Source of the DNA: Candidatus Omnitrophota bacterium
GTDB lineage: Bacteria; Omnitrophota; Gorgyraeia; Zapsychrales; Fredricksoniimonadaceae
DNA length: 64,000 nucleotides
Assembly (NCBI GenBank): GCA_903860135.1
Contig: CAIOPG010000017.1
Coordinates: 203,364-267,363, forward strand
Direction: 5' to 3'
Shown here: piece after piece, positions 1 through 16,590 of the stretch
How positions within the stretch are numbered: the stretch's first letter is position 1
How the letters are laid out: each line of letters begins with the position of its first letter
Notes under the pieces: generated by a model
Told to the model about the DNA's origin: nothing
Database searches by the model: none
Seen by the model: only the letters and a program-made list of their open reading frames with translations
Translations under genes and position numbers: made by a program

Positions 1-29
1 TTCTCATACATCAACAAAGGAGCTTCTCC

Positions 30-377: not shown

Positions 378-390
378 GATCAAGGACTGA

Positions 391-975: not shown

Positions 976-2180
976 ATAAGCCCTGCCCTTTCCCGCCCGA
1001 CCTTGGACAGATAATGCGCCACGGCGCGTGCCTGATCATCCAGTTCAACAAGGAATGCGTCATGCCCGTAATCCGAATGGATCTCCACATAAGAAACATC
1101 CGCATCCTCCGCCTGCAACGCACGCACCATTTCCCTGGACTGTGACGACGGATAAAGCCAGTCCGAGGTGAAGCTGATAACTAGGAAATCCGCCGTCACC
1201 CCTTTAAAGACCTCGCTGATCTTGCGGCCTTCGGCCAGATCGAAATAATCCATGGCCTTGGTCAAATAAATATAACTGTTGGCGTCAAAACGCTCGACGA
1301 AACTTTGCCCGCGGTATTCCAGGTAACTCTGCACCTCAAAGTCCTTGGAAAGGTCATACCCCAGTTTTTGCTTGTCCAAAAGTTTACGGCCGAATTTGCT
1401 CTCCATGGAAACCCAGCTCATATACGTGATGTGCCCGATCATCCGCGCCACCGATAACCCGCGCGCCGGGACTGCCTGTCCGTAATAATCGCCGTTGTTC
1501 CAGGCCGGATCCGCCATGACCGCCTGGCGCCCGACCTCATGGAACGCGATCTGCTGGGCCGTATGCCGGTGGCATGCGGCGATAATGATAACAGAATGCG
1601 CACATTGCGGATATTTCACCGCCCAGGTTATCGCCTGCATGCCGCCCATAGAGCCGCCCGCGCAACACAATAACTTACTGATGCCCAAATGATCCACGAG
1701 GGCCTTCTGCACATCCACCATGTCCTCAATGGTAATGACCGGGAATGCCAGCCCAAAGGGTTTTTCCGTCAGGGGATCAATGGAATCAGGGCCGGTCGTG
1801 CCTTTGCAGCTGCCCAGCACATTGGAACAGATCAGAAAATATTTATCCGTATCAAACGCTTTGCCGGGGCCGATCATGCCATCCCACCAACCCGGTTTCG
1901 TGTCACCGGCATGATAGAAGGCGGCATGCGCGTCGCCGGTAAAGGCATGCAGGATCAGGATCGCATTGGAACGGGCGGCATTGAGCGTCCCATAGGTTTC
2001 GTAGGCAACTGTCACCGGCCCAAGCTTTTCGCCACTCTTGATGCTGATCTGTCCCAAAGAAAAGTATTGTGTTGCAACGATCGTCGTATTATTCACAGGC
2101 TGTTTTCCTCGCCGGCCCCTGCTCGGCATAACGGAACATGGCCTCCAGGCACCCCAAGGCACGGGCGCGCACCTGCGCAT
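972..2180 (-). CDS. metX: homoserine O-acetyltransferase MetX (alpha/beta hydrolase); true start probably internal GTG near 2096 preceded by GAGGAAAA
   Basis: GGSMGGMQA nucleophile elbow, HAFTGD motif, length and metW partner; longest ORF overlaps nadA end by ~90 nt, internal start with SD removes most overlap. Confidence 0.85.
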   Translation of the reverse strand: MRRCAPVPWGAWRPCSVMPSRGRRGKQPVNNTTIVATQYFSLGQISIKSGEKLGPVTVAYETYGTLNAARSNAILILHAFTGDAHAAFYHAGDTKPGWWDGMIGPGKAFDTDKYFLICSNVLGSCKGTTGPDSIDPLTEKPFGLAFPVITIEDMVDVQKALVDHLGISKLLCCAGGSMGGMQAITWAVKYPQCAHSVIIIAACHRHTAQQIAFHEVGRQAVMADPAWNNGDYYGQAVPARGLSVARMIGHITYMSWVSMESKFGRKLLDKQKLGYDLSKDFEVQSYLEYRGQSFVERFDANSYIYLTKAMDYFDLAEGRKISEVFKGVTADFLVISFTSDWLYPSSQSREMVRALQAEDADVSYVEIHSDYGHDAFLVELDDQARAVAHYLSKVGRERAGLI

Positions 2181-3180
2181 CGACCTGGATAATGTCCGAC
2201 GGCTTAGGTGCCTTGAGCGTACTTAAAATGCTTTCGAGCGTATTCGATTTCATATATTTGCACAGGGTACAACTGCCCACAAGTTCCTTGTCCGGGAACT
2301 CCGACTGCAGCCGCGCCGAAAGGCCGCACTCGGTCAGCATCAAAAATTGCTTCGCGCGCGTCTGGCGCATATAATCCAGCATTTGCTCCGTACCACCCAC
2401 AAAATCCGAGTTCCCGACAACAACCGCATTGCATTCCGGGTGGCTGACGATCTTCACCCCCGGATACTGCGTGCGGATCTTCATGATCTGCTCGCCGGTG
2501 TATTCTTCATGGACATAGCACACACCTGAAAAATAACGGATATCTTTGGCCACCTTCCGGCGCGCCATTTCATTCTTCAGGTTGATGCCCATATATTTAT
2601 CCGGCAGGAAATAGATTTTGTCCGACGGGATACTCTCAACAACCTGATAGACGTTGGCCGACGTTACGCACACATCACATTCCGCCTTGACCTCGGCGGT
2701 AGTATTAACATAACAAACAAAGGTGTACCCCGGAAATTCCTGGCGCAAACGCCGGACATCGGCCGCCGTGATCGAATCCGCCAGCGTGCACCCCGGTTCG
2801 CGGGCCGGCATCAAAACGGTTTTGTCGGGATTAACGATCTTGGCCGTTTCCCCCATGAAACGGACGGCCACAAACACGATCGTTGCGGCCTTGGTCATCA
2901 TGGCATCGCGGCTCAGCTTGTAGGAATCCCCGACGAAGTCCGCCACTCCGTAAATGATCTCGGGGCTGGCATAGGAATGGACCAGGATGACCGCATTCCT
3001 GGCCACTTTCAGGGCATTGATCTCCTGGATCAACGGCACAAGTTCTTCGCATTTTTTCAGCGAATACTGGCACACCAGCGCGCCCGCGCGGACATTCTTG
3101 AGTTTCTGGTAAAGTTCCCCGGCCGTAACCGGCACAGCGGCTGACATATAGGTATCTTTCTGTTGGGAAAATTGTTTCAA
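2089..3180 (-). CDS. nadA: quinolinate synthase NadA
   Basis: NAVILVHSY, conserved Cys residues, ~360 aa, typical NadA architecture. Confidence 0.8.
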   Translation of the reverse strand: MKQFSQQKDTYMSAAVPVTAGELYQKLKNVRAGALVCQYSLKKCEELVPLIQEINALKVARNAVILVHSYASPEIIYGVADFVGDSYKLSRDAMMTKAATIVFVAVRFMGETAKIVNPDKTVLMPAREPGCTLADSITAADVRRLRQEFPGYTFVCYVNTTAEVKAECDVCVTSANVYQVVESIPSDKIYFLPDKYMGINLKNEMARRKVAKDIRYFSGVCYVHEEYTGEQIMKIRTQYPGVKIVSHPECNAVVVGNSDFVGGTEQMLDYMRQTRAKQFLMLTECGLSARLQSEFPDKELVGSCTLCKYMKSNTLESILSTLKAPKPSDIIQVDAQVRARALGCLEAMFRYAEQGPARKTACE

Positions 3181-3249
3181 AATACTATATATGAGTTTGC
3201 CGGATTATTCAAGGATATCAGGGGGAAAAATAGGGCGCGCGGGACCTCT

Positions 3250-4575
3250 TCACACGATGGATCTTTCATTCTCAATGACGTTGTAGATATCAGTCCGACG
3301 CCCACGATCCCAATCAAGATAAACCTGCCTGGACAGCTCCTTGTTCAACGGCAAAGAAGCCACTTTATTCGCCTGAAATACCTTCAAGACAGCAGGGGCG
3401 TACTTTTCACACAGCCAGCACTCTCCGGGATCTTTGAAGCAAGCCCTCATCCTGTCATATATGGCCGAAAAGTCTTCCTCGCATATATTTCCAAAGGAAA
3501 TGTTAAGGAACTCACAGGGCTGAACATCTCCTTTGGCATTGAGATAAAACCTGTCCGTGCCGCCGGCGGTACAGCCAAACACAAGAGGGTCCTCCTCGAT
3601 GATCTGGGCCGATATGGACGGGTACTCCCTGTACCGCGCCTCATTATTATACGCATGCACCAGTTCTTTAACCTTGTCCAGATCCGCTGCCGTGAAATTT
3701 TCGATCCCCGATTCCAGCCAGGCGCCAGAAGGCTTCGGCTTGATGACCTGCACCAGGCAAGCGCCAAAGTCCCTGGCTTTGGCCATCACCTGCGCGAAGG
3801 CACCATTATAAAAATCTTCCCGCCGGAGGCAGGCATTAAAGGCGACCGGCACATCCGCCGCGTGGCAGCAACGGATACCCTCCTGCAAAATAGCCCAGGC
3901 ATTTTCAGACCCCATGAAGGCATTCACATATTCAGGAACAGCACTATGCAAAGAGAACATGACCCCCGTCAACCCTAAACCTTTAAGCTCCCGCAACCGC
4001 TCCACACTCACCCCGTCACCTGTTGAATTGATCCATATCTCGGCGCCGCCATTGATAGACCCGCACAACCTCTTCAACCGGTCGTAGACCAAAAAAGGAT
4101 CCCCGCCTTCAATGTTAAAGAACGCCACGCCCTTCGCCTGCATGCGCTCAACAGCCTTAACCATAAGATCAATGGACACATCTTTGCCCGTGTCTTTTCT
4201 CTGATAACAATGCGCGCAGTGGTGCCGGCACGCCGATGTCACCGAGATCAGGGCCGTTGTGCACGGCAATTTGGCATCAAACACCATGAACTTGCGGCAA
4301 GCCGTGAAGAATGCCTTCGAAGGAAATCCGGGGATATATAATCCCACCCGGACATAGCGCCCGATGGCGACAAATTTGTTATGATAGATCTTGGACAAAA
4401 AATACAATAGCCGCTTCAGGAACATCCTATATCTGCCCACCGATAGCCTGCCCTTTAAAAGCTCCGGTAAGTAATAAAAGAAAATACACACCTTCAACTT
4501 AATGGAGAACAAAACCTTGTTGAATCCTGTGACATTCTTCACGCTGATCATAAGCCCCCTGCCTGCCGGTACCAT
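3250..4575 (-). CDS. radical SAM protein with C-terminal SPASM/twitch-like Cys cluster
   Basis: CRHHCAHCY (CxxxCxxC) radical SAM motif; C-terminal CTAGGTDRF...CEFL..C cluster; last gene of overlapped operon. Confidence 0.7.
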   Translation of the reverse strand: MVPAGRGLMISVKNVTGFNKVLFSIKLKVCIFFYYLPELLKGRLSVGRYRMFLKRLLYFLSKIYHNKFVAIGRYVRVGLYIPGFPSKAFFTACRKFMVFDAKLPCTTALISVTSACRHHCAHCYQRKDTGKDVSIDLMVKAVERMQAKGVAFFNIEGGDPFLVYDRLKRLCGSINGGAEIWINSTGDGVSVERLRELKGLGLTGVMFSLHSAVPEYVNAFMGSENAWAILQEGIRCCHAADVPVAFNACLRREDFYNGAFAQVMAKARDFGACLVQVIKPKPSGAWLESGIENFTAADLDKVKELVHAYNNEARYREYPSISAQIIEEDPLVFGCTAGGTDRFYLNAKGDVQPCEFLNISFGNICEEDFSAIYDRMRACFKDPGECWLCEKYAPAVLKVFQANKVASLPLNKELSRQVYLDWDRGRRTDIYNVIENERSIV

Positions 4576-5582
4576 TTGACCGTATTCCTTATCCCCTCAT
4601 CAAGGCTATAACGGGCCCTGAAGCCAAGGACTTCTTCGGCCTTGTGCGTGGCATATTCAATATTGTCATAGAACATATTCACCCGCCCGCGCGTCAACAG
4701 GGGCGGCGCTTTCATCTTTAACAATGTATAAACCAGCTCCATCAGGAAACCCGCCGGATAAACAAGCCATTTAGGCAACAGCAGCGGCTTCTTCACACCG
4801 GCATAACGGCAAAACAGTGAGAATATATGATCCATGCCGGCACAATCCGTGTCCGCAATGATCAGGTGCTGCACCCCCCTCAACCGCCGGATGAACGCCA
4901 GATAATAGGCCTCGGCAAGATCCGGGGCATAGATCACATGGAACTTGTTCTTGCGCGACCCGGGAGCAACCGCAACCCCCTGCTCAACGGACCTGATATA
5001 TTCCAAAAATACCGTATGCCGGCCATTCTCTCCGTAAACCCATACCGGATCGAGCACGGTTAGATTGATTGCTTCACGCCGGGCAAAGTCCATGGCACGT
5101 TCAGCCGCCAGGCATTTTGTATCACGGTAATGATTCAAACAGCACGGGAATATCCTGTCGAGAAAATAGGGATAATGCGCCTGATACGGTGAAGCCTCAT
5201 CTTTGACCTTGAACGAAGGCTCTTCCCCGTACACCGCATTGGTCCCTGTCATGATCACATCCTTGATCCCGTTCGCCACACAGGCTTCAAGGACATTCAA
5301 GGCCCCCTCAACATTCGTCTGATAAAAAGACTGGTACTCTCCCCAGTCTTTAACATACCCCGCATTATGAATGACAAAATCATGCCCTTGTAACGCCTCG
5401 ATCAACGACGCCCTGTTGCCAATATCTCCATATTTATATTCAACCGCATACCCTTGAATATCGGAAAGATCACTGCCCCGACGGACAAAACAGGTCACGG
5501 CCACCCCATGCCGGGTGAACAGGCTGACGAGATGGCTGCCGATAAACCCGTTAGCACCTGTGATCAATACGTTACGCTTCAT
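4548..5582 (-). CDS. NAD-dependent epimerase/dehydratase family (extended SDR) protein
   Basis: N-terminal VLITGANGFIGSHLV Rossmann motif; YxxxK region; 344 aa. Confidence 0.75.
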   Translation of the reverse strand: MKRNVLITGANGFIGSHLVSLFTRHGVAVTCFVRRGSDLSDIQGYAVEYKYGDIGNRASLIEALQGHDFVIHNAGYVKDWGEYQSFYQTNVEGALNVLEACVANGIKDVIMTGTNAVYGEEPSFKVKDEASPYQAHYPYFLDRIFPCCLNHYRDTKCLAAERAMDFARREAINLTVLDPVWVYGENGRHTVFLEYIRSVEQGVAVAPGSRKNKFHVIYAPDLAEAYYLAFIRRLRGVQHLIIADTDCAGMDHIFSLFCRYAGVKKPLLLPKWLVYPAGFLMELVYTLLKMKAPPLLTRGRVNMFYDNIEYATHKAEEVLGFRARYSLDEGIRNTVKWYRQAGGL

Positions 5583-6855
5583 GTTGTAGCTTTCTCAGGA
5601 GGACACCCGCATTGTGCCCGCCAAACCCGTAGGATGTGGATATCGCCGTATTAACTTCCGCCTCGATCGACGTGTGGACAAGGTTCAAATTCTCACGCGG
5701 ATCAGCCACGCCATTGCCGTGCACACGCGATGCCTTGATAGCCAGGGCCGTCACGGCGATCTCCAGCGCCCCGCTGGCGCCCAGCGTATGGCCGAGGATC
5801 CCTTTGGTTGAATTCACATAAGGCTGATCTGCCCGTGGACCAAAAATAGCGGCAATGGCATCGGCCTCAATGCTGTCATTGACAGCGGTCCCGCTGCCAT
5901 GGGCGTTAAGATAATCAATCGTCTGCCCCTGTTTGAGATCCCGTAATAATCGCCGGATCTGAGCGCCCGAAGGATCCATCTGGACAATATTATGCGCATC
6001 ACTGTTGCTTTGAAAATCAGCGATCTCCGCGTAGATCGCCGCCCCCCTGTTTAAGGCATGCTGATATTCTTCGAGCACAAGAACGCACGCGGCTCCTTGA
6101 GCGAACAGAAATCCTGTGCTTGTCTTTGAAAAAGGATAAGGAACGCCGTCAGCAGACCGGGTAAGGACCCCGAGCACATCAAAGCCCCGCATGATGCCGC
6201 CCATACTATCAGCCATACATTCCACGCCGCCGGTCAATACAACATCCTGCGGGCCATTCCTGATCGCATGATACGCTTGCCCAACGGCCACGGTCCCCGA
6301 CGCGCACGCGGCATTGACCGTATAACTGGGGCCCTTTAATCCATGCGCAATAGATATCCAGCTGGCCACCGCATTGGGCATCAGCATGGGTACAACCATG
6401 CGATTATAACGGACTTGCTGAATATCCATGGCAGAGGGGATTTCACTCTTATCCTTCACGATATGCGACAAGTAAGAACAAAAACCGGTTTCAAGGCTGC
6501 TCATCCCGATACCAACGATCACCCCGGCATCCATAATGTCCGGCGCTACAAACCCGTCCTCACGGCGGACAACAGAAAAACCGGCATCCTTCAAGGCCAG
6601 GGCTGCCGCGGCCAGAACCAACTTGTCTTCATCCTGCATGATCTTATTGTAATAAGAGGGAAACCCGTAGGCATCAAGATCAACGTGAGGACAAGGGCTG
6701 TAATAACGCGACTTGAACTGATACCCGCGTTCAAAATTCCCAGGTATCTCCCTGATACAACGCCGCCCATCAAGAATACCTTCGAGGAAATCCTTTTTCC
6801 CGACGCCTGTTGATGTGACCGGCCCGAGCCCGGTGATCACAACCCGGCGCATCAT
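5572..6855 (-). CDS. beta-ketoacyl-[ACP] synthase (KAS I/II, FabF-like)
   Basis: Active-site NAACASG Cys, HGSGT and GHTLGASG His motifs; 427 aa. Confidence 0.8.
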   Translation of the reverse strand: MMRRVVITGLGPVTSTGVGKKDFLEGILDGRRCIREIPGNFERGYQFKSRYYSPCPHVDLDAYGFPSYYNKIMQDEDKLVLAAAALALKDAGFSVVRREDGFVAPDIMDAGVIVGIGMSSLETGFCSYLSHIVKDKSEIPSAMDIQQVRYNRMVVPMLMPNAVASWISIAHGLKGPSYTVNAACASGTVAVGQAYHAIRNGPQDVVLTGGVECMADSMGGIMRGFDVLGVLTRSADGVPYPFSKTSTGFLFAQGAACVLVLEEYQHALNRGAAIYAEIADFQSNSDAHNIVQMDPSGAQIRRLLRDLKQGQTIDYLNAHGSGTAVNDSIEADAIAAIFGPRADQPYVNSTKGILGHTLGASGALEIAVTALAIKASRVHGNGVADPRENLNLVHTSIEAEVNTAISTSYGFGGHNAGVLLRKLQHEA

Positions 6856-7868
6856 GGCTGCTCCTTCAAATAACGGACAAGGGCCGCCAGGTAATCCTGG
6901 CGTTGATCAAAATCCCGGGCGCGCGCCACAAGCCCCCCCAGATCAACGCGTCTTTGCCCGTCGCACAAGCGCTTTGTTGCCGCCGTGATCTTGCCGATCC
7001 TGAAGAAGGTCAACCCTTCCTGGCTTGCCCTCGACAAGAACAACCCTTCATCCGCAGGTTGTACGGTAAAAAGCAACTCATACTCTCCGGCCTCGCCCAG
7101 GAACAGCAATTCTTTGGGCAGGGATAAAGCCGCCGCCCCCAACACACCGGCGTCAATATAAGGCAAGTCTGCCACCTCATACCCTACGCCATTAATGTCA
7201 GCCAGCGTATTCAACGCATTAAAAACACCGTCGCTGGTGTCTATGCAGCACCTGGCATAAAGGCCTATGAAGGCAGCTGCCTGAACACGCAACGGGAATC
7301 GGTTGCGGATCATGCCGGCCAACAACCGTAAACGGCCATCATCCGCGTAAAGCTTGAGCACCGCCTCGACATTTCCCAGCCCGATCCTGCCAGAAATATA
7401 AATTGAGTCCCCGACCTGAGCCCCTTTCCTGCCCAAAGGATATCTTCCCGGACTGCCTATAACAGCGGCGGTATAACGCCAGTGCGCAGCTTTCCCGAAA
7501 TCACCTCCCATAAAAGCCGTGCCGGCCTGCGCGAGCACATCAGCCACTCCTTGTGAGAACTTCTGAATATAATGCTCATCCCAGGCCTTGCTCACGGCCA
7601 TGGCATGGCCATAGAGGCACGGCTTGCCCGCGCAGGCAAGGATATCGCTGATCCCCCCGACAGCAACATTCCACCCCAAAGAGTACGGATCATCTTCACG
7701 CAACATGTCTTCGGCGGAAAACTCATCCATCGTAAAAAGAAGTTGCTTGTCATCCACCAAAACAACTTCCGCGTCAGACTCAAAAGGCCGGCTCAAACGG
7801 CAACGATCAGCCGGGAACATGCTGTCGATCAGGCGAATCGTTCTGGCCTCGGCGTCAATCTTACGCAT
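6852..7868 (-). CDS. AIR synthase-related (PurM-like superfamily; ThiL/HypE-like) ATP-dependent enzyme
   Basis: PurM-like N- and C-domain pattern (DDAAVL-like DAEVVLVDD, GGDT-like GGDFG); 338 aa. Confidence 0.5.
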   Translation of the reverse strand: MRKIDAEARTIRLIDSMFPADRCRLSRPFESDAEVVLVDDKQLLFTMDEFSAEDMLREDDPYSLGWNVAVGGISDILACAGKPCLYGHAMAVSKAWDEHYIQKFSQGVADVLAQAGTAFMGGDFGKAAHWRYTAAVIGSPGRYPLGRKGAQVGDSIYISGRIGLGNVEAVLKLYADDGRLRLLAGMIRNRFPLRVQAAAFIGLYARCCIDTSDGVFNALNTLADINGVGYEVADLPYIDAGVLGAAALSLPKELLFLGEAGEYELLFTVQPADEGLFLSRASQEGLTFFRIGKITAATKRLCDGQRRVDLGGLVARARDFDQRQDYLAALVRYLKEQP

Positions 7869-8820
7869 GGATCAGCTCCAGCTTATCCTTGGCCATGGTC
7901 ACCCCGCATGGCAGAAAACCCTGGGGATCCCCGTCAAATTCCACTTCGACCGCAGGCTGATCGGCCTTGACATCAACCCTCCGGGCATACGCAAGAGAAA
8001 TTTGCCGGCTGTTGCTGATCGGTTTCCCGCTATAGACAGCCATCAGGCAATGCGGCACGTGCCTCCAGGCGACATCTTTGACAGCTAATAAATAAAACCG
8101 TCCATCCCCTTCGATCAAGGTGCCGTTGACCTTGATGCCGGAGGCGATATGCCATGTTTTTCCTATGGAAAGATTACACAATCCCGGCCATATCTCTGCC
8201 CTGCCGTCACAGGACACAGCTAATTTTAAACGACGGTATTGCCTGAACGACCTGATAATAGCCCTGAGCGTTCCTACGCTATCCCCCCATCTTTTCCTGC
8301 CCCCGGCATTAGCCTCTCGGGCCACCGAAGCCCCCAGGCCGATATTGACGCAACAGGCAAAATAACGCGTCACACGCTCCGGCACGCCCTGCCCGGGACA
8401 CCCATCAGCGCCAGCCGTGTTCAAGGTTATTTGCCCCAGCTGGATCTGCGTTGTACGCCCCGCCAGGAGCACGTCGAGCGATCGCTCTATAGCCCCATAA
8501 GGAACCGCATAGCTTTTACAGAAATCCGGGCTTGTTCCGGTATAGATAACACCCAAACTGGCCCTGGAGAGCCTGGATCCGTTCTCATCGTAAAACCCGT
8601 TGATGACCCTGTTGATCGTGCCATCCCCCCCCACCGCAACGACCACATCATAGCCCGCCCTGTTGGCTTCTTTCGACAAGGTGCACGCATCGTGCAATGA
8701 TCCCGTTATCGCGCATTCAAAGATGACTTTCCGCGCCACCAACAAAGAACGCAGGCGCGCGATCAGCGGCGCGCTCTGCCCATGCCGCGACCCTGGATTA
8801 AAAATAAAGAAATACCTCAT
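7861..8820 (-). CDS. lipid kinase, diacylglycerol-kinase catalytic domain family (YegS/BmrU/ceramide-kinase-like)
   Basis: FIFNPGSRHG start and VAVGGDGTINRVING motif typical of DAGK_cat. Confidence 0.65.
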   Translation of the reverse strand: MRYFFIFNPGSRHGQSAPLIARLRSLLVARKVIFECAITGSLHDACTLSKEANRAGYDVVVAVGGDGTINRVINGFYDENGSRLSRASLGVIYTGTSPDFCKSYAVPYGAIERSLDVLLAGRTTQIQLGQITLNTAGADGCPGQGVPERVTRYFACCVNIGLGASVAREANAGGRKRWGDSVGTLRAIIRSFRQYRRLKLAVSCDGRAEIWPGLCNLSIGKTWHIASGIKVNGTLIEGDGRFYLLAVKDVAWRHVPHCLMAVYSGKPISNSRQISLAYARRVDVKADQPAVEVEFDGDPQGFLPCGVTMAKDKLELIHA

Positions 8821-10004
8821 ACGGCCGTCATTCTCCTGCCAATGGACTGAAACACATCGAGGACCCTGCCCACCGTGCCCTCGGACAAATTGGCTCCGGC
8901 GATCAATCGTATCTTGTTCTCATGCACCGGCACCGATGGAGGAACAAACGGTGTTACCAGAATATTGGCCTCATGGATCATTTTCGCCAGGCGCGCGCAA
9001 TCATCCAGATCCCTGACCATGATCGACGTGATCGGCGCACTCCCGTCTGTCACATTAAAACCGCTGGCAACAAGGCCTTGGCTGATCATCCTTTTGTACC
9101 GCCACATCTTTTCACTCAGGGCCGGAAACTCAGCATCGATGATATCGAGGACCGCTTCCACACCGGCAAGTACTGGCGGCGGCAAAGCGGTCGAATAAAT
9201 AAAAGCGGGGCATGAATACTTCAAATACTCGATAAACGCTTTCCTGCCACCGACAAAACCGCCGGCATTGGCCAAAGCCTTGCCCAAAGAGGCCGTGTAT
9301 ATCCCCTCGAAATTAACAACATTCTTTTCTTCCAAAACCCCCCGGCCTGAACGGCCGAGCACCCCGATCCCGTGGGAATCATCAATGACCGGCACCGCGT
9401 TGAATTGCGTGCACAACCGGATGATCTCATCACAAGGGGCCAGGCTCCCTTCGGTCGAAAAAACCGACTCGGTCACCACAAAGACCCGCCTGTACATTTC
9501 CGTCTTTGAAAGGACCTTTCTCAAATGATCCATATTGTTGTGCAGGAAAGGCCTGATCTTACACCCGGCCAGGCGTACCCCCTGGATGAGCGACGCATGC
9601 GCATAATGGTCAATGATGATCAGGTCTTCGGGCCCGGCCAATGACAGGAAGATCGCGCCATTGGCCTGATAAGCTGACGGGAAAATAATACCGGCCTCCA
9701 CCCCCGCGAACGTTGCCAGCCTTTGTTCCAGCCGCGTCAGGATCGCCATGGAACCGGTGGCTATCGGCGTGCCGCACATCGACGCTCCATAGCGCCCTGC
9801 GGCCAGCGCTATCGCCCGGGCAACGCGCGGGTCAGCGGCAAGGCCAAGATAATTATTAGCGGCCAGATTGATAAAGGCCGTGCCGTCAATGATAATGGGA
9901 TCCCCCAGGCTCGACTCAATATGGGCATAATACGGATTGAAATCATATTTTTGCGTCAAGCTTTTGTCCACCACCAGCCCGGTATAAAAAGGTTCGCGCG
10001 CCAT
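8817..10004 (-). CDS. alpha-oxoamine synthase family PLP enzyme (serine palmitoyltransferase / 8-amino-7-oxononanoate synthase / Kbl-like)
   Basis: NYLGL substrate-loop motif, class-II aminotransferase fold length 395 aa, PLP-Lys region; adjacent ACP. Confidence 0.8.
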   Translation of the reverse strand: MAREPFYTGLVVDKSLTQKYDFNPYYAHIESSLGDPIIIDGTAFINLAANNYLGLAADPRVARAIALAAGRYGASMCGTPIATGSMAILTRLEQRLATFAGVEAGIIFPSAYQANGAIFLSLAGPEDLIIIDHYAHASLIQGVRLAGCKIRPFLHNNMDHLRKVLSKTEMYRRVFVVTESVFSTEGSLAPCDEIIRLCTQFNAVPVIDDSHGIGVLGRSGRGVLEEKNVVNFEGIYTASLGKALANAGGFVGGRKAFIEYLKYSCPAFIYSTALPPPVLAGVEAVLDIIDAEFPALSEKMWRYKRMISQGLVASGFNVTDGSAPITSIMVRDLDDCARLAKMIHEANILVTPFVPPSVPVHENKIRLIAGANLSEGTVGRVLDVFQSIGRRMTAV

Positions 10005-10255
10005 CAGGGCTCCTTGAGGTCAGGATAATGCTGTTGCAGGCGCGCGACAATATCGGCCACATGAGCAATCCCGATAAAGTCCTTTTCCGCGATCGTGATA
10101 CTGAATTCATCCTCGAGGGCATTGATGATGATGAGCATGGCAAATGAATCGACCCCCAGGTCATGCCGCAGGTCCGTCGCGGGCGTGATCGTGGTCCGTT
10201 CTTTCCCTTCAAGATTCTTTTCAATGGTCCTGATGACCCTGTCTTGCAAGCTCAA
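10004..10255 (-). CDS. acyl carrier protein
   Basis: 83 aa acidic protein with LGVDSF phosphopantetheine-attachment-like motif; start overlaps AOS stop. Confidence 0.65.
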   Translation of the reverse strand: MSLQDRVIRTIEKNLEGKERTTITPATDLRHDLGVDSFAMLIIINALEDEFSITIAEKDFIGIAHVADIVARLQQHYPDLKEP

Positions 10256-10270
10256 GGGCGCCTCCTCTGG

Positions 10271-11491
10271 TTAAACATCCACCGCGCGATAACACCGCGT
10301 CGGCTGATGACTATCGGTCATGACCGCACACCTGTTACAGTTCAGGCATTTGGCTTTCCAGCCGTGATCCGCGATCAATTGATCAACGAGATCCGGTTCA
10401 CTGATAAACGGCCGCGACAAACCAACCATATCCGTTGCACCCCGTTCAACGGCAGTGGACATCTCTTGCCCTGTCCTGAAGCCACCAACAGAAATAATGG
10501 GGATCGCCGTGTGCTGTTTGGCCTGCCTGGCATAAGCCAGATTGTACATCGGAGAGAACAGCCTGATACCCGGCCTCATGAAGGGATAAAGCACATACCG
10601 GCGCCATAACCGCCCCAGGATCGATGCCGTCTTGTATTTCGGGTTATAGCGCCAGATGGCATCGAGCGGTACTGTCTGCCCCCTGAATATGTTCAAGGCC
10701 CGTTCCATGGTGCCACAACTGATCTCAATGGCATCCACCTTCATTTGATCAAGGAAACGCACCAAATGAATGAGCGGTGCCCCCTCCAAGCCATGCTGAG
10801 GCTGGTCATCGCCGCTGATCTTCACCCATAATGGAAAATCATGGCCACAGCGCTCCCTGACACGTTCAATGATCACTTTCAAAAACTGCGGCCCGATCCC
10901 GGTCTTGCGATCTATCCCAAAAATATCCCGACGGTCATTGATCGACGGCAAAAGGAATTGATGCACCAGATACCCATGCGCCGCATGGATCTGCACCCCA
11001 TCAAAACCTGCCTTTTGACATCTCAAAGCCGCTGTGGCAAAACCTTCTGCCAGCGCCCAGGCTTCGCTGGTTGTCAAGGCTTTCACCTTGACGCCAAAAT
11101 ACGCAGAACTCTGGCTGGATGCCCCGCGTGCCCAGCCACCCACGGCGCGGGCCGACGTCTGCCGCCCGCTATGCGCGATCTGCATGAGCACCTTGCCGCC
11201 ACGGGCATGGACCAGGCCGGTCATGGTTTTATACAGAGGGATCTTTGCGTCATCCTCGATCCCCGCCTGCCCCGGTTGCATCGCCCGCCCGCAAGGCGTG
11301 ACATACGCAAATCCCGTCAACAAAGCACCGATATGCTGCCCGGCCAAAGCCGCGTAAAGATCAAGGTATGCCTTTGTCGGCCGTCCGTCATCGTCGCACA
11401 GCCCTTCAAACGTCGCCGATCTCACGATCCGGTTCGCCAGGGTCAGGCGGCCTGTGGCCACGGGCTGAAAAAGTTTATCCATACGCCTCAT
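10271..11491 (-). CDS. NADH:flavin oxidoreductase, Old Yellow Enzyme family
   Basis: HAAHGYLVHQFL motif, TIM-barrel OYE signature, 406 aa. Confidence 0.75.
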   Translation of the reverse strand: MRRMDKLFQPVATGRLTLANRIVRSATFEGLCDDDGRPTKAYLDLYAALAGQHIGALLTGFAYVTPCGRAMQPGQAGIEDDAKIPLYKTMTGLVHARGGKVLMQIAHSGRQTSARAVGGWARGASSQSSAYFGVKVKALTTSEAWALAEGFATAALRCQKAGFDGVQIHAAHGYLVHQFLLPSINDRRDIFGIDRKTGIGPQFLKVIIERVRERCGHDFPLWVKISGDDQPQHGLEGAPLIHLVRFLDQMKVDAIEISCGTMERALNIFRGQTVPLDAIWRYNPKYKTASILGRLWRRYVLYPFMRPGIRLFSPMYNLAYARQAKQHTAIPIISVGGFRTGQEMSTAVERGATDMVGLSRPFISEPDLVDQLIADHGWKAKCLNCNRCAVMTDSHQPTRCYRAVDV

Positions 11492-12495
11492 GACCTCGGA
11501 TTGGCATGCAGGTCAAACAGGAAGCCTACCAGCATATACGACATGAGAAATAACCATAACGCCAGCTCGGGATTGAAGAAAGCCACGATCGTTGCCTCAC
11601 CGCAGACACACGCGCGGAAATTCATTTTCAACGACGCATAGGTCTTTTCTCCGGTAGCATGGCAATAGTAAAGGAACCCGGTCCAGGCCTGCATCAAAAT
11701 TGTCAAACAGCCTAGGATCACAAAAGTGCTGTTGATCGACACCTCGAGCATATGCGTGGCGCGCAAGATGAAAAATGTTACCGTCGGCAGGAATGTCGCA
11801 AAAAGCGCTATCAGGCGCGCCTTATTGATCCCGTAGCGGACAACAAGGGTTTCCTTCCCGGCCGCTTTATCCCCTTCATAATCCTTGAAATAGGTGTAGA
11901 ACGTCATCAGGCCGTTAATGATCAGGATAAGCAATAATGCGGAAGTACGGTGCGACGCCAGGAAGGATGCCTGGGTCGGGCCGCAGGCATAGAACCCGTA
12001 GAAAGGCGCCATGGTGATCATCAGCCCGAAAACAATATTACCAAGGATGCCATGCCCTTTGGCGTATTCATAAACAATGTTAAATATCACACCGGCCAAA
12101 AGAAAGATCACCGCCACCGGCTCCAGATACAACCACGTCACCGCCGCTGCAAGGATCAACATAACGATCGAAAGCCCCAGCGCCTTGTTGGCATCGAGTT
12201 CACCGGTCACCATGGGGCGTTCGGGCGCGTTGATCCTGTCCTCTTTAAGCCCCAGGTAATCATTGATGATCTGGTTGATCCCCCAGCTTAAAAACAGCAG
12301 GCACAGGATAACGATCTTCTTTTCATCACCAGGCAGAACTTCAATCGTCCTTTCCGGATGATGCCTGGCCAGCAATTCATAATAAGCCACGCCGATCCAC
12401 CCGGCTATCCCGGTCACAAAGGAATAATAAAGCCGCATTGATTTGATATATGCCGTGATGAACTTGATAAAGACCTCCCTGGTATCAGACCCCAT
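11488..12495 (-). CDS. UbiA-family aromatic/lipid prenyltransferase (integral membrane)
   Basis: Polytopic; first Asp-rich motif NDYLGLKED and second DYEGDKAAGKET (DxxxD...G..T) typical of UbiA superfamily. Confidence 0.65.
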   Translation of the reverse strand: MGSDTREVFIKFITAYIKSMRLYYSFVTGIAGWIGVAYYELLARHHPERTIEVLPGDEKKIVILCLLFLSWGINQIINDYLGLKEDRINAPERPMVTGELDANKALGLSIVMLILAAAVTWLYLEPVAVIFLLAGVIFNIVYEYAKGHGILGNIVFGLMITMAPFYGFYACGPTQASFLASHRTSALLLILIINGLMTFYTYFKDYEGDKAAGKETLVVRYGINKARLIALFATFLPTVTFFILRATHMLEVSINSTFVILGCLTILMQAWTGFLYYCHATGEKTYASLKMNFRACVCGEATIVAFFNPELALWLFLMSYMLVGFLFDLHANPRS

Positions 12496-12505
12496 CGTTA
12501 TAGAA

Positions 12506-12997
12506 TCAAGCCTTCAACCCATGGAACCACGTGTGCATCATGCCCGCCAGGGCCTTTTGCTCTGACGAAGAGATCTTGCCCATCAAATGTTCAACGGTCT
12601 TGATATACCCCGGCCAGGCGTCATCAAGCAGGCGCGACCCGCGCGCGGAGACCCGGATCACCTTGACCCGCTTGTCGCCGGAACGCGACGAACGCTCGAT
12701 CAATTTCTCACGCTCCAGTTTGTCCAGCAGGCGCGTCATGTTCGACGCTGTGACCATGAGCCGCTTGCCGATATCACACTGACTCAACCCGACATCCCCG
12801 CCCTGATGCTTGATGATCATCAGCACATTCATCTTCGCCGGCGTCAGGTCAAAGGTGTCCAGGTATTTCGAGACCTTGTCGAACAGGACGGTATACACCA
12901 GCACCAGCCCGTAAAAAGCTTCCTCGTAATACTGCCCCTTGCCCGCCTTGATCCCGAAAGCTTCCAGATAATCCATAGCCCCCTCCATGTCTGGCAT
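12506..12997 (-). CDS. MarR family transcriptional regulator (longest ORF extends to 13144 but overlaps miaB; likely start at MPDM/MEGAM)
   Basis: Winged-helix MarR core (LSQCDIGKRLMVTASNMTRLLDKLEREKLIER...DKRVKVIRVSARG). Confidence 0.7.
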   Translation of the reverse strand: MPDMEGAMDYLEAFGIKAGKGQYYEEAFYGLVLVYTVLFDKVSKYLDTFDLTPAKMNVLMIIKHQGGDVGLSQCDIGKRLMVTASNMTRLLDKLEREKLIERSSRSGDKRVKVIRVSARGSRLLDDAWPGYIKTVEHLMGKISSSEQKALAGMMHTWFHGLKA

Positions 12998-13028
12998 AAC
13001 AATATCACAACTTAGTTGATATGTCAAC
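12986..13028 (-). promoter_or_regulatory. candidate sigma70-like promoter (TTGACA-N17-TATTGT) with imperfect inverted repeat TATCAAC..GTTGTGATA (putative MarR operator) immediately at marR start
   Basis: Read on minus strand at miaB/marR junction: TTGACATATCAACTAAGTTGTGATATTGTTATG. Confidence 0.3.
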
Positions 13029-14348
13029 AATCTCGCCTTTGAGCTGATGCGGGGTGGCGCGGGTGATGCGGGCGTTGAGGATATCTCCGGGTTGGGCGAT
13101 GCCGTGCGGCAGGACAACGATCTTGTTGGCGTCATTGCGGCCATAAAGGGCGTTGGCCTTGATATCCCGCGCGCTTTCGATCATGACAGGCTGTATCCGG
13201 CCAACAAGAGCTTTGTTTTTCTGAAGGGAAATATCGGTCTGGAGCCGGTTGATCCGCACGATGCGCGCGGTCTTTTGAGCTTCGGTAACATCATCCTTGA
13301 GCGTTCGCTCGGCCTCGGTGTTGGGCCTGACGGAATATTTAAACATGAACGCCGTATCAAACTGAACCTCGTGCATGAGGCGGACCGTATCTTCGAACTC
13401 GATATCTGTTTCCGTCGGAAATCCAACGATAATATCCGTCGATAAGGCGATGTCCGGGCATGCACGGCGCAAGCGTCCGACCAAAGAAATAAAATCAGCC
13501 CCCGTATAGTGCCGATTCATCAGGGCCAGGACCCGGTCATGACCCGCCTGCAGAGGTAAATGCACCTGTTTGCAAACTTTCGGATTTTCAGCAAGGACAC
13601 GGATCAGGCTGTCCGGAAAATCCTTGGGATGCGGCGATGTAAAACGGATACGCTCGATGCCCTTGACCGTTGATACAGCGCTCAGCAAAGCGGCAAAATC
13701 CTGATCTTCATGCTGATAAGAATTCACATTCTGCCCGAGCAAGGTCACCTGTTTGAAGCCTTCATCGGCCAGGCGCTTCACCTCGTCGAGAATATTGCTC
13801 ACCGACCGACTGCGTTCACGCCCGCGGGTAAAAGGCACAATGCAGAATGAACAGAAATTGTTGCACCCGCGCATGACCGCCACCCAGGCATTGATCCCTG
13901 AAGTGCGCGCCGGGTACACATCCGCATAGGTCTCAAATTCCGACAAGGTCACATCATAGCCGGAATGTTGATCGCGGGCATGGCCCGATTGACACCCCGC
14001 CGCCAGCGCCGACGCCAATAGTCCAGGCAACCGTTTATAACTGTCCGGCCCGGCCACCACATCGAGCGCCAGCGCCTTATCCTCGATCAACTCCTTGCGC
14101 AACCCCGTCGCCATGCACCCCAGGATCCCGATCACCACCGGCCGCCCCTGACGCCGGTGACGGATCTCATGCACATGCCCATACACCTTACGGTGCGCAT
14201 TCTCCCGCACCGAGCACGTATTCAAAAGGACAATATCCGCCGCCGCCTCATCATCCACAAACACATACCCCGCCTCAATAAGGATCGCCCTCACGAGCTC
14301 GGAATCGTATTCGTTCATTTGGCACCCGAAAGTCTGTAAAAATATCAT
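13005..14348 (-). CDS. miaB: tRNA-2-methylthio-N6-dimethylallyladenosine synthase MiaB
   Basis: MIFLQTFGCQMNEYDSE N-terminal MTTase domain, CNNFCSFC radical SAM motif, TRAM C-terminus. Confidence 0.85.
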   Translation of the reverse strand: MIFLQTFGCQMNEYDSELVRAILIEAGYVFVDDEAAADIVLLNTCSVRENAHRKVYGHVHEIRHRRQGRPVVIGILGCMATGLRKELIEDKALALDVVAGPDSYKRLPGLLASALAAGCQSGHARDQHSGYDVTLSEFETYADVYPARTSGINAWVAVMRGCNNFCSFCIVPFTRGRERSRSVSNILDEVKRLADEGFKQVTLLGQNVNSYQHEDQDFAALLSAVSTVKGIERIRFTSPHPKDFPDSLIRVLAENPKVCKQVHLPLQAGHDRVLALMNRHYTGADFISLVGRLRRACPDIALSTDIIVGFPTETDIEFEDTVRLMHEVQFDTAFMFKYSVRPNTEAERTLKDDVTEAQKTARIVRINRLQTDISLQKNKALVGRIQPVMIESARDIKANALYGRNDANKIVVLPHGIAQPGDILNARITRATPHQLKGEIVDISTKL

Positions 14349-14406
14349 CTTAATGCCCCACTGTTATACAGAAATATAAGACTGTTAAATGCATCGCAAC
14401 CTATAT

Positions 14407-15078
14407 TCATCTCAATTCATCAACAGAAAATTCCTTCCCATGAGATGGAAATAATATTTTCGCCCCGCTACTGATAATCCTTGCCCAGCTTTCTTTTACG
14501 ACAATGTAATCTTCAGCCTCGATCGGGTACGGCTTAACACCGAATATGTTCATGGCGGCATCTCCGCAATAAGCTTTACCGTCATCCGTAATCAATGTTA
14601 TAGAATCTGCGCTGTGCCCGGGTGTATCGACAATCACACCATTAATACCGATCTCTTTCAAAACCTCTCTGCCGTCATCCCCAATCACGATATCCGTGTC
14701 ATTTGTAAATATAGGTGAATACGAAATCCTAATGAACAACCTCAGTGCTCTATCGAGCAACTTCAAAGAAAGATTGTACTGTTTAGTCTTTGCTATCTCC
14801 GTGTTTCCATTCTTCAATAAATCTACCTGTTTCTTATGCAATATCAATTTTGCGCCCATTATCGTTCGCAATTCGTTCACAAGCGCGGCATGGTCATGGT
14901 GATGGTGTGTGACCATTATATAGTTAACTTCCCTCGGATCTATACCAGCCTCATACATCTTTCTTAAAAACACGCTCATCTTGCCGTTCCACCCGGCATC
15001 TATCAACAAATATCCACCCTTTGCCCGCAAAAGGTAATAATTGGTATCACTATATCGTATCGTTTTGTGCTCACCCAT
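14407..15078 (-). CDS. MBL-fold metallo-hydrolase
   Basis: VTHHHHDH metal-binding motif, 223 aa. Confidence 0.7.
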   Translation of the reverse strand: MGEHKTIRYSDTNYYLLRAKGGYLLIDAGWNGKMSVFLRKMYEAGIDPREVNYIMVTHHHHDHAALVNELRTIMGAKLILHKKQVDLLKNGNTEIAKTKQYNLSLKLLDRALRLFIRISYSPIFTNDTDIVIGDDGREVLKEIGINGVIVDTPGHSADSITLITDDGKAYCGDAAMNIFGVKPYPIEAEDYIVVKESWARIISSGAKILFPSHGKEFSVDELR

Positions 15079-15134
15079 AATTCATTTCCGAAATTATTGC
15101 TCGTCCATCGGTTATAATTAACGGGACACAATAC

Positions 15135-15413
15135 TTATTTCCCCATCCGCCATTTGGCTGGCTTCCCCTTGCCAAGACAAACGATCTTCTTTTCAGCCTT
15201 GAGTGTCCGGAAGACTTTACGGATCATATCAGGATCGATGCCGGAACACGCCCCCCTAACTTCAGTCATCGAAAAATCACCCTGCTGTTTCAGGATCACA
15301 TCCCGAACGATTTCGGTTTTTGCCCCTCTGCGAACAGACAACTCTCCCGCCCGTTCACTGAACTCTTTATACGCTGTCAAAACAGTCACAAGAAAATAAT
15401 GCACCCACGGCAT
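15135..15413 (-). CDS. hypothetical protein (92 aa)
   Basis: ORF only; basic C-terminus; no recognisable motif. Confidence 0.25.
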   Translation of the reverse strand: MPWVHYFLVTVLTAYKEFSERAGELSVRRGAKTEIVRDVILKQQGDFSMTEVRGACSGIDPDMIRKVFRTLKAEKKIVCLGKGKPAKWRMGK

Positions 15414-15530
15414 GACATTGTGACGGCTCTCATGCTATTGACGGGAACTTATATTTAGAGTTTTATCAATAATAGTGTCAGTTCTCGACTACCCGATGCC
15501 TTGCAGGCACTTGACTAATAATTCCCCATG

Positions 15531-16526
15531 TCAATTCAATTTATTGATCAAATTCACAACCAGCGCCGCTATAACATCTTTTTCCTTTGCCTGACTCTCG
15601 GCGATCAGAAGTGTTATCGCGACCAGCGCATTATCCGCGATGCGCTTGCCCCCGTCAGCCTTGTACAGTATCCTGTTCCGATCAAGGAACCACACGAACA
15701 GGGCGGCCGCAATGCGCTTATTGCCGTCAGAAAATGCATGGTTCTTAACGACCAGATAAAGCAAATTGGCCGCCTTTTCTTCCACGCTGGAATAAAGATC
15801 TTTCCCGCCGAAGGTCTGGTAAACAGCACCCAGGGCACTCTTAAAGGAGGCGTCTTTCTCATTGCCGAACAAGCCGCTGACCCCAAATTTCTGCCGCATC
15901 TGGTCGATCACCCTTAAGCCTTCTTCATAGGTCAACTGATAGCACTCTTTAGCGGTAGACGACTTGATCCGGGTCCGCCCGTGATCATAATCATCCAGAA
16001 CATCCAGGCCATAACTGTAATCACGAATGACCTCGAACAACCCTTTAGCTTCATCGCTAGTCAAAGCCTTGCGCTCGCTCACATCCGCCAGCAATTTCAC
16101 TGCCTGCTGAAGGGTCTTTAGACTGGCCGTATGTTCTTTAAGCCTCTTATCATTGATCGTATACCCCTGAATCAAATGCTGCTTCAAGACATTCGTGGCC
16201 CAGATGCGAAATTGTGTCCCGCGCTTTGATTTAACCCGGTAACCAACAGAGATGATAACGTCCAAGTTATAAAAGACGGTCTCGTACGCTTTACCGTCGC
16301 TAGCAGTTATCCGGAAATTCCGGATAACTGACGACTTAACGAGCTCTTTTTCTTTAAAAATGTTCCCAATGTGCTCATTAATGGTGCGTAGATCTTTACT
16401 AAAAAGCTCTGCCATTTGCTTTTGAGAGAGCCAAACAGTTTCATCCTGTAACTTTACCTCAACAGAAACACCTACCCCCTGCTGGCGAAAAACAATCAAA
16501 TCTGTCTTTTTTACTTTATCATCCAT
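15531..16526 (-). CDS. RhuM-family / Fic-Doc domain fusion protein (Doc-like toxin domain)
   Basis: N-terminal RhuM-like region (YNLDVIISVGYRVKSKRGTQFRIWAT); C-terminal HAFSDGNKR Fic/Doc motif. Confidence 0.7.
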   Translation of the reverse strand: MDDKVKKTDLIVFRQQGVGVSVEVKLQDETVWLSQKQMAELFSKDLRTINEHIGNIFKEKELVKSSVIRNFRITASDGKAYETVFYNLDVIISVGYRVKSKRGTQFRIWATNVLKQHLIQGYTINDKRLKEHTASLKTLQQAVKLLADVSERKALTSDEAKGLFEVIRDYSYGLDVLDDYDHGRTRIKSSTAKECYQLTYEEGLRVIDQMRQKFGVSGLFGNEKDASFKSALGAVYQTFGGKDLYSSVEEKAANLLYLVVKNHAFSDGNKRIAAALFVWFLDRNRILYKADGGKRIADNALVAITLLIAESQAKEKDVIAALVVNLINKLN

Positions 16527-16554
16527 AAATTATCTCCAAAATCCTCAATATCAT

Positions 16555-16590
16555 CGTGCGTATCTTGCACATACGGTCAACCGTAGGTAG
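16555..16590. repeat. partial copy of recurring intergenic motif (TACGGTYGACCG..GTGCA..ATCTTA on coding strand) upstream of Fic/Doc gene
   Basis: Aligns to copies at 18115-18157 and 22851-22894. Confidence 0.45.

Follow-up and report, generated by a model that had tools for sequence, protein, structure and literature searches.

Bacterial ceramide clusters are the closest described counterparts of the locus reported here. They comprise Spt, an acyl carrier protein (ACP), an acyl-ACP synthetase, CerR, and bCerS, and the ceramide kinase of Caulobacter is CpgB. To our knowledge, bacterial sphingolipid synthesis has been elucidated only recently, and only for the route that runs through Spt, bCerS, and CerR. 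We analyzed a 64,000-nucleotide (nt) stretch of a Candidatus Omnitrophota genome (GenBank assembly GCA_903860135.1, contig CAIOPG010000017.1, positions 203,364 to 267,363; hereafter, the window), which carries a cassette of nine enzyme genes behind a gene for a MarR-type regulator. As in the ceramide clusters, an alpha-oxoamine synthase (AOS) is encoded beside a dedicated ACP, an epimerase-fold NAD(P) reductase, and a kinase with the diacylglycerol kinase (DAGK) fold. In contrast to the Spt-bCerS-CerR clusters, the cassette has no bCerS, its AOS is not an Spt by curated models, and a ThiL-like kinase, a UbiA-family transferase, and a radical S-adenosylmethionine (SAM) enzyme are obligatory extras; its carriers are lineages that we take to be all anaerobic. 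Judging from the protein families present, a radical-modified, prenylated, and phosphorylated amino-lipid is a reasonable hypothesis for the product.

The cassette and its regulator form ten consecutive minus-strand open reading frames (ORFs). In transcription order, these encode MarR, UbiA, an Old Yellow Enzyme (OYE), the ACP, the AOS, the DAGK-fold kinase, the ThiL-like protein (matching Pfam AIRS), a FabF-type beta-ketoacyl-ACP synthase (KAS), an extended short-chain dehydrogenase/reductase (SDR), and the radical SAM enzyme (rSAM). A search of species-representative genomes with a profile for the ThiL-like protein detected relatives in 159 of them; the 80 best loci were retrieved, 3 were looked up directly, and in the 82 non-redundant loci the six-frame ORFs were scored with the window proteins. 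All nine enzyme genes were on one strand in 49 of these loci. The order of the window was kept in 41 of the 49, one locus had OYE last, and seven, all from Bacteroidota, had the circular permutation AIRS-KAS-SDR-rSAM-UbiA-OYE-ACP-AOS-DAGK. The other 33 loci were cut by contig ends (22 loci) or had internal losses or split genes (11 loci). A reading of the window from its letters and ORFs, made before this analysis (the sequence-only reading), had treated the nine genes as one unit and had named conservation of the gene neighborhood as a check. The genes are indeed co-inherited across the related loci, and because they lie on one strand and in the same order in 41 of the 82, drawn from many phyla, the arrangement is far beyond chance.

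Carriers of the cassette span more than 12 bacterial phyla. They include Acetivibrio, Petroclostridium, Herbivorax, Anaerovorax, Omnitrophota, Bacteroidales, Spirochaetota, Cloacimonadota, and Latescibacterota, as well as Calditrichaceae, Acidobacteriota, Verrucomicrobiota, Desulfobacterales, Desulfobulbaceae, Sumerlaeota, Auribacterota, Mcinerneyibacteriota, and Oligoflexia. Over the part compared, the window is identical to an ENA metagenome scaffold, and its closest relatives carry Omnitrophota labels. Genomes labeled Clostridia are also represented. Desulfosporosinus orientis DSM 765, whose genome is complete, has the full nine-gene set (at about 2,174,600 to 2,184,050 of CP003108.1), and many other Desulfosporosinus are carriers as well. 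Catalytic motifs of all nine enzymes were at least 95% conserved (60 to 80 homologs), and an exhaustive profile search of 1.84 billion representatives placed 281 clusters (at 50% identity) in the ThiL-like family at an E value of ≤1e-30. Of the nine proteins, rSAM scored highest in bits against the related loci, and its listed homologs were 55 to 73% identical across phyla. Between phyla, flanking genes were not kept, and the only ones to recur were lineage-specific regulators and a few small lineage-specific genes. The cassette has apparently been exchanged horizontally between phyla. No prenyl-diphosphate synthase, acyltransferase, or head-group transferase recurred in the cassette or within 5 kb on either side of it at the related loci.

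Two further architectures, which are distantly related and employ the same functions again, as well as losses within the nine-gene architecture (type 1), separate a core from an accessory set. In type 2 (L078; Bacteroidales bin82, CP070654, 10007 to 16466), the order is AIRS-AOS-DAGK-UbiA followed by a classical SDR and a B12-binding radical SAM enzyme, without ACP, KAS, or OYE; L075 is probably also of this type. Type 3 (L095, 1 to 7680) has the order UbiA-ACP-AOS-SDR-rSAM-DAGK-AIRS-OYE and contains more distant ThiL-like relatives. One type 3 locus (L100, 119 to 6713) has a polyketide synthase-type PS-DH dehydratase between ACP and AOS, and in three others (L091, L093 [1 to 10046], and L094) genes for an MMPL-family transporter and a TP_0789/LolA-like protein are directly downstream. 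Elsewhere, OYE was absent from L003, L027, and L034 and split in L068; KAS was absent from L003, L037, L079, and L083; and L003 had an AMP-binding ligase gene after rSAM. A Verrucomicrobiota metagenome-assembled genome (L065, 3220 to 5589) encodes a 790-residue AOS-DAGK fusion with a linker of ∼50 residues (Pfam matches, AOS at residues 86 to 427 and DAGK_cat/YegS_C at 476 to 785).

From types 2 and 3 and the losses within type 1, the invariant core is AOS, a ketoreductase, the DAGK-fold kinase, the ThiL-like kinase, UbiA, and a radical SAM enzyme, the type of which can be replaced. KAS, ACP, OYE, dehydratase, and ligase are accessory and serve chain supply or tailoring. The sequence-only reading had set five enzymes apart as not fitting any canonical cluster; three of them (UbiA, the ThiL-like protein, and rSAM) belong to the core, whereas KAS and OYE are dispensable in some lineages. 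Since UbiA, the ThiL-like protein, and rSAM are co-inherited in three independent architectures, they are not chance neighbors. In L078, we also observed a ThiH-like gene and ThiF just upstream of the type 2 set, with three opposite-strand genes between; this may be coincidence.

Assignment of the cassette enzymes

Every domain call of the sequence-only reading was matched in Pfam above the gathering score. At the finer level of NCBIfam, none of the ten products (nine enzymes and MarR) scored above the curated cut-off of any family.

The AOS had been called Spt-like, which the curated models did not bear out. It scored below the cut-off on all three Spt models (score/cut-off, 265/640 for NF047600, 226/500 for NF047599, and 178/670 for NF047603), while a Prevotella Spt used as a positive control scored 659.7 on the Bacteroidota-type Spt model (cut-off, 640). 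Scores on BioF (TIGR00858, 305; cut-off, 426) and Kbl (288; cut-off, 460) were slightly higher; a second Kbl score was 263 (cut-off, 493). Among solved structures, Kbl and the Sphingobacterium Spt were about equally similar. Identity was 35 to 37% to Ralstonia Kbl, 28 to 37% across Kbl, BioF, and Spt, and at most 37% to any plasmid-borne Kbl, BioF, HemA, or Bacteroidales AOS. In a small neighbor-joining tree, the cassette AOS proteins formed their own clade (bootstrap, 90 to 100), apart from BioF and Kbl; the clade joined the Spt side at 25% support only, the deep nodes of this tree being weak. The sequence-only reading had considered that the AOS might group with BioF in a biotin context. It did not do so in the tree, and no bioA, bioB, or bioD was found near the cassette, while genuine BioF genes in control loci sat between bioA and bioD or bioC. 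The conserved residues Lys242, His136, Asp208, and His211 are present. By sequence, the AOS is thus a separate clade of the BioF/Kbl/Spt family, not BioF and not demonstrably Spt.

The two proteins predicted to serve acyl supply retain their catalytic features. The phosphopantetheine motif of the ACP (DS; Asp36-Ser37) is conserved, and the ACP gene is adjacent to the AOS gene in nearly all loci. The KAS triad Cys184/His319/His356 is intact and conserved, and the protein scored 270 on the FabF model TIGR03150 (cut-off, 494) and weakly matched the PigJ model. It is probably an elongating KAS in type rather than a housekeeping FabF.

The best NCBIfam matches of the SDR were lipid reductases of the HpnA and OleD type, both below cut-off. 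Its likeness to CerR is one of broad fold, and we predict from its sequence that it is a lipid ketoreductase with the 3-beta-hydroxysteroid dehydrogenase/epimerase fold. The DAGK-fold kinase has the motif GGDGT, and its best solved relative is DgkB, which places it with the YegS/DgkB-like proteins. Sphingosine and ceramide kinases share this fold.

The sequence-only reading had described a PurM-like enzyme. The superfamily was right, as the Pfam AIRS matches indicate, and the protein is more exactly ThiL-like: it scored 115.5 bits on TIGR01379 (thiL; cut-off, 184), and its best solved matches were eight ThiL sequences, followed by HypE. The motif DTSDG is invariant in its homologs. ThiL is a kinase that turns a phosphate monoester into a diphosphate, and homology predicts the same kind of reaction, from phosphate ester to diphosphate, for the ThiL-like protein.

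UbiA-superfamily enzymes act on Mg-bound diphosphate substrates. The best solved relative of the cassette UbiA is a digeranylgeranylglyceryl phosphate (DGGGP) synthase, MjDGGGPS (6M31), followed by chlorophyll synthase; DGGGP synthases act on a single-chain lipid phosphate, to which they add a second chain. The similarity to DGGGP synthases amounts to 45 to 80 bits, with scores of 67 to 68 on NCBIfam models whose cut-offs are 296 to 353. Motif 1 (residues 78 to 86) reads NDxxGxxED, not the canonical NDxxDxxxD, and is conserved in 67 homologs. Gly82 stands at the position of Asp66 of MjDGGGPS, where the type 2 UbiA has Gln. The D66A mutant of MjDGGGPS is strongly impaired (review, PMC9385802). 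Motif 3 (D205xxxD209) and YxxxK are present in the cassette protein. On these sequence features, it belongs to the UbiA superfamily, with an atypical motif 1. No geranylgeranylglyceryl phosphate (GGGP) synthase was found in or beside the related cassette loci.

The OYE assignment stood, with an Oxidored_FMN domain, and can be refined to a truncated Fe-S type. The best solved relatives are YqjM and FadH, and in the alignment the HAAHGYL segment of YqjM is matched by the stretch with His169, His172, and Tyr174; in OYE enzymes, such a His/His/Tyr set serves to bind an alkene activated by a carbonyl and to protonate it. Toward the C terminus is a four-Cys motif (C382, C385, C388, and C400; CxxCxxC...C) that is at least 95% conserved and is a probable 4Fe-4S site. 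The protein ends at residue 406, so that the C-terminal FAD/NADPH domains of FadH are absent, which implies an external electron donor.

The rSAM protein has CxxxCxxC at residues 116 to 123 (C116, C120, and C123) and a SPASM domain (24.3 bits; gathering score, 21.5) with conserved C335, C354, and C389. An N-terminal extension of ∼100 residues is predicted as two long helices. Searches by sequence gave only generic SPASM/twitch enzymes, and so did Foldseek with an AlphaFold2 model (pLDDT, 87.8), at a TM score of ∼0.5 (SkfB, SuiB, BlsE, viperin, MoaA, anSME, and PqqE). The tetraether synthase GDGT-MAS (Tes) was considered and rejected: there was no sequence match at an E value of ≤1e-3, and it ranked 45 in Foldseek, aligned over 223 columns of the common core only.

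Proposed pathway and rival explanations

The explanation we prefer, which we put somewhat short of an even chance, is that the cassette is a self-contained operon for a membrane-associated amino-lipid, in which UbiA joins a diphosphorylated base to a second hydrophobic partner; the chemistry is established for the enzyme families, and we infer the substrates and the order of the steps by analogy. An acyl chain would be loaded or extended on the dedicated ACP, here by the FabF-type KAS, and the AMP-ligase gene of one lineage and the dehydratase gene of two related loci may be variants of this chain supply. In the AOS step, a small amino acid (our first guess is serine) would be condensed with the acyl-thioester to give a 2-amino-3-keto long-chain base. 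Acyl-ACP is suggested as the AOS substrate because the ACP gene is adjacent. The SDR would then reduce the ketone, and the Fe-S OYE, whose catalytic residues imply an intermediate with a carbonyl-conjugated C=C bond, would reduce such a bond somewhere in the same stretch of the route.

The DAGK-fold kinase would phosphorylate a hydroxyl of the base; that it acts on the AOS product is suggested by the natural AOS-DAGK fusion. The ThiL-like kinase would add the second phosphate, and UbiA would use the resulting diphosphate to couple the base with its hydrophobic partner, which would take the place of the ceramide N-acyl chain. As the cassette contains no prenyl-diphosphate synthase, the two kinases most likely make the diphosphate for UbiA, and as it contains no N-acyltransferase, UbiA would supply the second hydrophobic part. 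Oxygen-independent tailoring would fall to the radical SAM/SPASM enzyme, and MarR here, or an XRE-type regulator in Firmicutes, would control the unit. In some lineages, the MMPL transporter and the LolA-like (TP_0789) protein may export the product from the cytoplasmic membrane. These two genes, together with the membrane location of UbiA and the helical N terminus of rSAM, point to a membrane lipid. A more far-reaching version, which we consider possible and rather doubtful, is that the product represents an oxygen-independent class of two-chain lipids, built on a diphosphate-activated sphingoid-type amino alcohol by UbiA alkyl transfer rather than N-acylation, and spread horizontally among anaerobes.

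Several points weigh against the amino-lipid scheme. The AOS is no nearer to Spt than to Kbl or BioF, and its scores and identities single out no amino-acid substrate. The matches of rSAM are generic and point to no particular step; no named subfamily reached its cut-off. The first Asp-rich motif of UbiA is noncanonical. Moreover, the carbocation-type chemistry of UbiA enzymes would be ill served by a primary, non-allylic alkyl diphosphate, so that the scheme requires a center that is allylic, hetero-benzylic, or assisted by a neighboring amine. It is conceivable that the dehydratase of type 3 yields a 2-enoyl-ACP and, through it, an unsaturated base with an allylic alcohol, which would ease the carbocation chemistry. 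Finally, UbiA enzymes are reported to cluster by the structure of their acceptor (review, PMC9385802), and this last point also speaks for another assignment of the transferase.

In that alternative, which we regard as somewhat unlikely, the cassette UbiA would work as a DGGGP synthase does, with the base 1-phosphate as acceptor and farnesyl or geranylgeranyl diphosphate from the cellular pool as donor. The product would be an O- or N-prenylated sphingoid phosphate, from which the ThiL-like kinase would make a head-group diphosphate, either final or an activated intermediate. The best characterized relatives of UbiA are DGGGP synthases, a long-chain base 1-phosphate resembles geranylgeranylglyceryl phosphate, and the chemistry has precedent. 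Farnesyl diphosphate is general in bacteria, so that no dedicated synthase is needed, which fits the finding of none in the flanks. However, the invariant ThiL-like kinase would be left without a clear purpose, the OYE residues fit a carbonyl-conjugated alkene rather than the isolated double bonds of a prenyl chain, and where MjDGGGPS has Asp66, the cassette UbiA proteins have Gly or Gln. The carbocation problem would disappear altogether if the diphosphate were hetero-benzylic, as in a route to a heteroaromatic small molecule or pigment-like lipid. Here, a beta-ketoacyl-ACP and serine or glycine would give an alkyl-pyrrolinone that the SDR reduces, after the model of RedL/RedK and PigJ/PigH in prodiginine synthesis; an alkylpyrrole-methanol would be diphosphorylated, and coupling or prenylation by UbiA would proceed through a stabilized azafulvene-type cation, like that of hydroxymethylpyrimidine diphosphate in thiamin synthesis. 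The quartet of KAS, ACP, AOS, and reductase mirrors prodiginine logic, in line with the weak PigJ match of KAS; secondary-metabolite clusters typically show such a patchy horizontal spread together with local regulators. The nearest named relatives of the cassette proteins include chlorophyll synthase, NirJ/AhbD, bilirubin reductase, and 5-aminolevulinate synthase, all well below cut-off, but this likeness to tetrapyrrole enzymes is at the generic family level only. The core is still present where KAS and ACP (type 2) or KAS (several type 1 loci) are absent, and the MMPL-family transporter and DAGK-fold kinase fit a bulk lipid better; we judge this route improbable.

The two remaining explanations would make the cassette an instance of something familiar. 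An ordinary ceramide or sphingolipid cluster (Spt, ACP, reductase, and ceramide kinase) with unrelated neighbors is suggested by the adjacency of AOS, ACP, an NAD-dependent reductase, and a DAGK-fold kinase. The AOS and SDR of type 2 score somewhat better on Spt and KdsR models, and Spt-like genes occur in Cloacimonadota without a nearby bCerS or CerR (Ding et al. 2024). We nevertheless find this very unlikely: a bCerS-like acyltransferase was found neither within nor close to any of the loci, the AOS falls far short of all three Spt cut-offs while the true Spt run as a control passes, and the supposedly unrelated UbiA, ThiL-like protein, and rSAM are inherited with the core in three architectures. 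Least credible of all is a biotin/pimelate (BioF), threonine (Kbl/Tdh), or specialized fatty-acid-synthase operon. The top AOS model scores are to BioF and Kbl, KAS and ACP are parts of fatty-acid synthase, and an extended SDR can be a threonine dehydrogenase; yet all of these scores are below cut-off, no bio genes are nearby, and the AOS clade is apart from both BioF and Kbl. A membrane UbiA, a lipid kinase, and an MMPL transporter would have no role in such an operon, which is effectively refuted by the gene context.

Gene layout, regulator, and surroundings

The nine enzyme ORFs were present on the minus strand at the coordinates of the sequence-only reading (Table 1). That reading had every start overlap the preceding stop, by 4 to 30 nt. 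Overlap was found at seven of the nine junctions and ranged from 1 to 28 nt: 4 nt at UbiA/OYE, 1 nt at ACP/AOS, 4 nt at AOS/DAGK, 8 nt at DAGK/AIRS, 4 nt at AIRS/KAS, 11 nt at KAS/SDR, and 28 nt at SDR/rSAM (4 nt if rSAM starts at ATG 4551). The other two junctions have spacers, of 10 nt (MarR/UbiA) and 15 nt (OYE/ACP).

Table 1. Regulator and enzyme genes of the cassette in the window
Product	Position	Strand	Remarks
Radical SAM/SPASM enzyme	3250-4551	minus	Longest ORF to 4575; Pfam Radical_SAM and SPASM
Extended SDR	4548-5582	minus	Pfam Epimerase, 102.9 bits
FabF-type KAS	5572-6855	minus	Pfam KAS N and C domains
ThiL-like AIRS/PurM-superfamily protein	6852-7868	minus	Pfam AIRS N and C domains
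DAGK-fold lipid kinase	7861-8820	minus	Pfam DAGK_cat, 75.7 bits; YegS_C, 41.2 bits
AOS	8817-10004	minus	Pfam Aminotran_1_2; pyridoxal phosphate dependent
ACP, 83 aa	10004-10255	minus	Pfam PP-binding, 40.5 bits
OYE, 406 aa	10271-11491	minus	Pfam Oxidored_FMN, 168 bits
UbiA membrane transferase	11488-12495	minus	Pfam UbiA, 102.5 bits (gathering score, 34.2)
MarR, ∼156 aa	12506-12976	minus	Longest ORF to 13144; Pfam MarR, 47.9 bits

MarR had been placed at the head of the unit, and it occupies this position in the window as well as in at least five more loci from Omnitrophota; in 14 Firmicutes loci, there is an XRE-type helix-turn-helix regulator instead. The right end given earlier, 13144, belongs to an ORF that does exist; it is the longest ORF only, however, and runs into the MiaB-like gene upstream of the cassette (stop at 13005). 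The most likely start of MarR is ATG 12976, chosen because it is behind a ribosome-binding site, GGAGGGGG, and because the protein from this start begins MDYLE..., matching the N terminus of the orthologous MarR in other Omnitrophota loci. Just upstream of MarR, within the 3' end of the MiaB-like gene, is a promoter-like site (12999 to 13027, minus strand) of the form TTGACA-17 nt-TATTGT with a TG extension, which is a consensus match only, at 10 of 12 positions. Omnitrophota loci L005 to L008, L011, and L012 have a gene for an alpha/beta-hydrolase, located between those for MarR and UbiA, and one for a small membrane protein after rSAM; the window has neither.

Downstream, the cassette is flanked by NadA, a MetX-like hydrolase, and MetW. 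We considered that the cassette might be part of a mobile island and rejected this in view of the housekeeping genes on both sides and the unremarkable GC content. The stretch from 14000 to 19000, with a GC content of 0.42 to 0.47 (∼0.54 in the cassette), may be an acquired island; its genes encode a metallo-beta-lactamase-fold protein (14407 to 15078), a RhuM/Fic-domain protein (15531 to 16526), and a 454-residue TPR protein (16691 to 18055). Three consecutive minus-strand ORFs of 589, 343, and 342 residues (18858 to 22694) had no Pfam match at an E value of ≤1e-6. A two-partner secretion (TPS) pair is located at 24977 to 31361 and consists of a ShlB/FhaC-type transporter (24977 to 26677) and its partner, a 1,544-residue exoprotein with a TPS domain and GLUG repeats (26727 to 31361). 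Two adjacent arylsulfotransferase (ASST)-like genes follow at 31450 to 34015, and just beyond them, at 34012 to 37426, are genes for an ABC-F type ATPase and a Radical_SAM_N/DUF3362 protein.

Relation to known systems

The sequence-only reading had called the cassette a candidate for an undescribed system, and no characterized cluster matching the nine-gene set was found in NCBIfam or in full-text literature searches, which gave no description of the cassette and whose coverage excludes most subscription-journal papers. For the Cloacimonadota with Spt-like genes and no bCerS or CerR nearby, a non-homologous replacement has been suggested (Ding et al. 2024, PMC11334938). The cassette may account for some of the Spt-like anaerobes of this kind. 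If the product is indeed such a lipid, a bacterial amino-lipid pathway would employ a ThiL-like kinase and a UbiA resembling DGGGP synthase, which would bear on the diversification of membranes under anoxia and on the "lipid divide" between bacteria and archaea. A sphingolipid/archaeal-ether hybrid of this kind might account for some of the orphan nitrogen-containing lipids of anoxic waters and sediments, and a product restricted to anaerobes could be a lipid biomarker. The hypothesis is directly testable, since D. orientis DSM 765, which is cultured and sequenced, carries the complete set.

Beyond the ceramide clusters, to which the AMP-binding ligase of L003 adds a likeness with that of Caulobacter, the cassette resembles archaeal diether synthesis, where the enzyme nearest to its UbiA is found; in our scheme, the cassette enzyme would likewise add the second hydrophobic chain to a phosphorylated single-chain lipid. 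In contrast to that pathway, the cassette has no GGGP synthase, Asp66 is replaced, and an amino alcohol would take the place of glycerol as the backbone. Co-localized homologs of GGGP and DGGGP synthases have been reported from Cloacimonadota (Villanueva et al. 2020). Identity of that DGGGP synthase homolog with the cassette UbiA is ruled out by its GGGP synthase neighbor.

The proposed use of serial kinases also has parallels. In plants, the phytol kinase VTE5 and the phytyl-phosphate kinase VTE6 feed the UbiA-family phytyltransferase VTE2. Both this series and ThiD/ThiE/ThiL of thiamin synthesis pair serial kinases with an enzyme whose superfamily ionizes Mg-diphosphates, as would the cassette, one of whose kinases is a ThiL homolog. 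The kinase families differ, those of the cassette having the DAGK fold and the PurM/ThiL fold. Prodiginine modules (RedP/Q/R, RedL, and RedK; PigJ/PigH) also combine KAS, ACP, an oxoamine synthase, and a reductase, whereas the cassette encodes separate small proteins rather than multidomain synthases, can dispense with KAS and ACP, and resembles PigJ only weakly. With FadH, BaiCD, and bilirubin reductase, the cassette OYE shares the FMN-binding TIM barrel, the His/His/Tyr set, and the four-Cys motif, but not the FAD/NADPH domains. Taken together with the ceramide clusters, the cassette is best filed as amino-lipid (sphingolipid-type) biosynthesis with an undescribed ThiL-like/UbiA/radical SAM extension.

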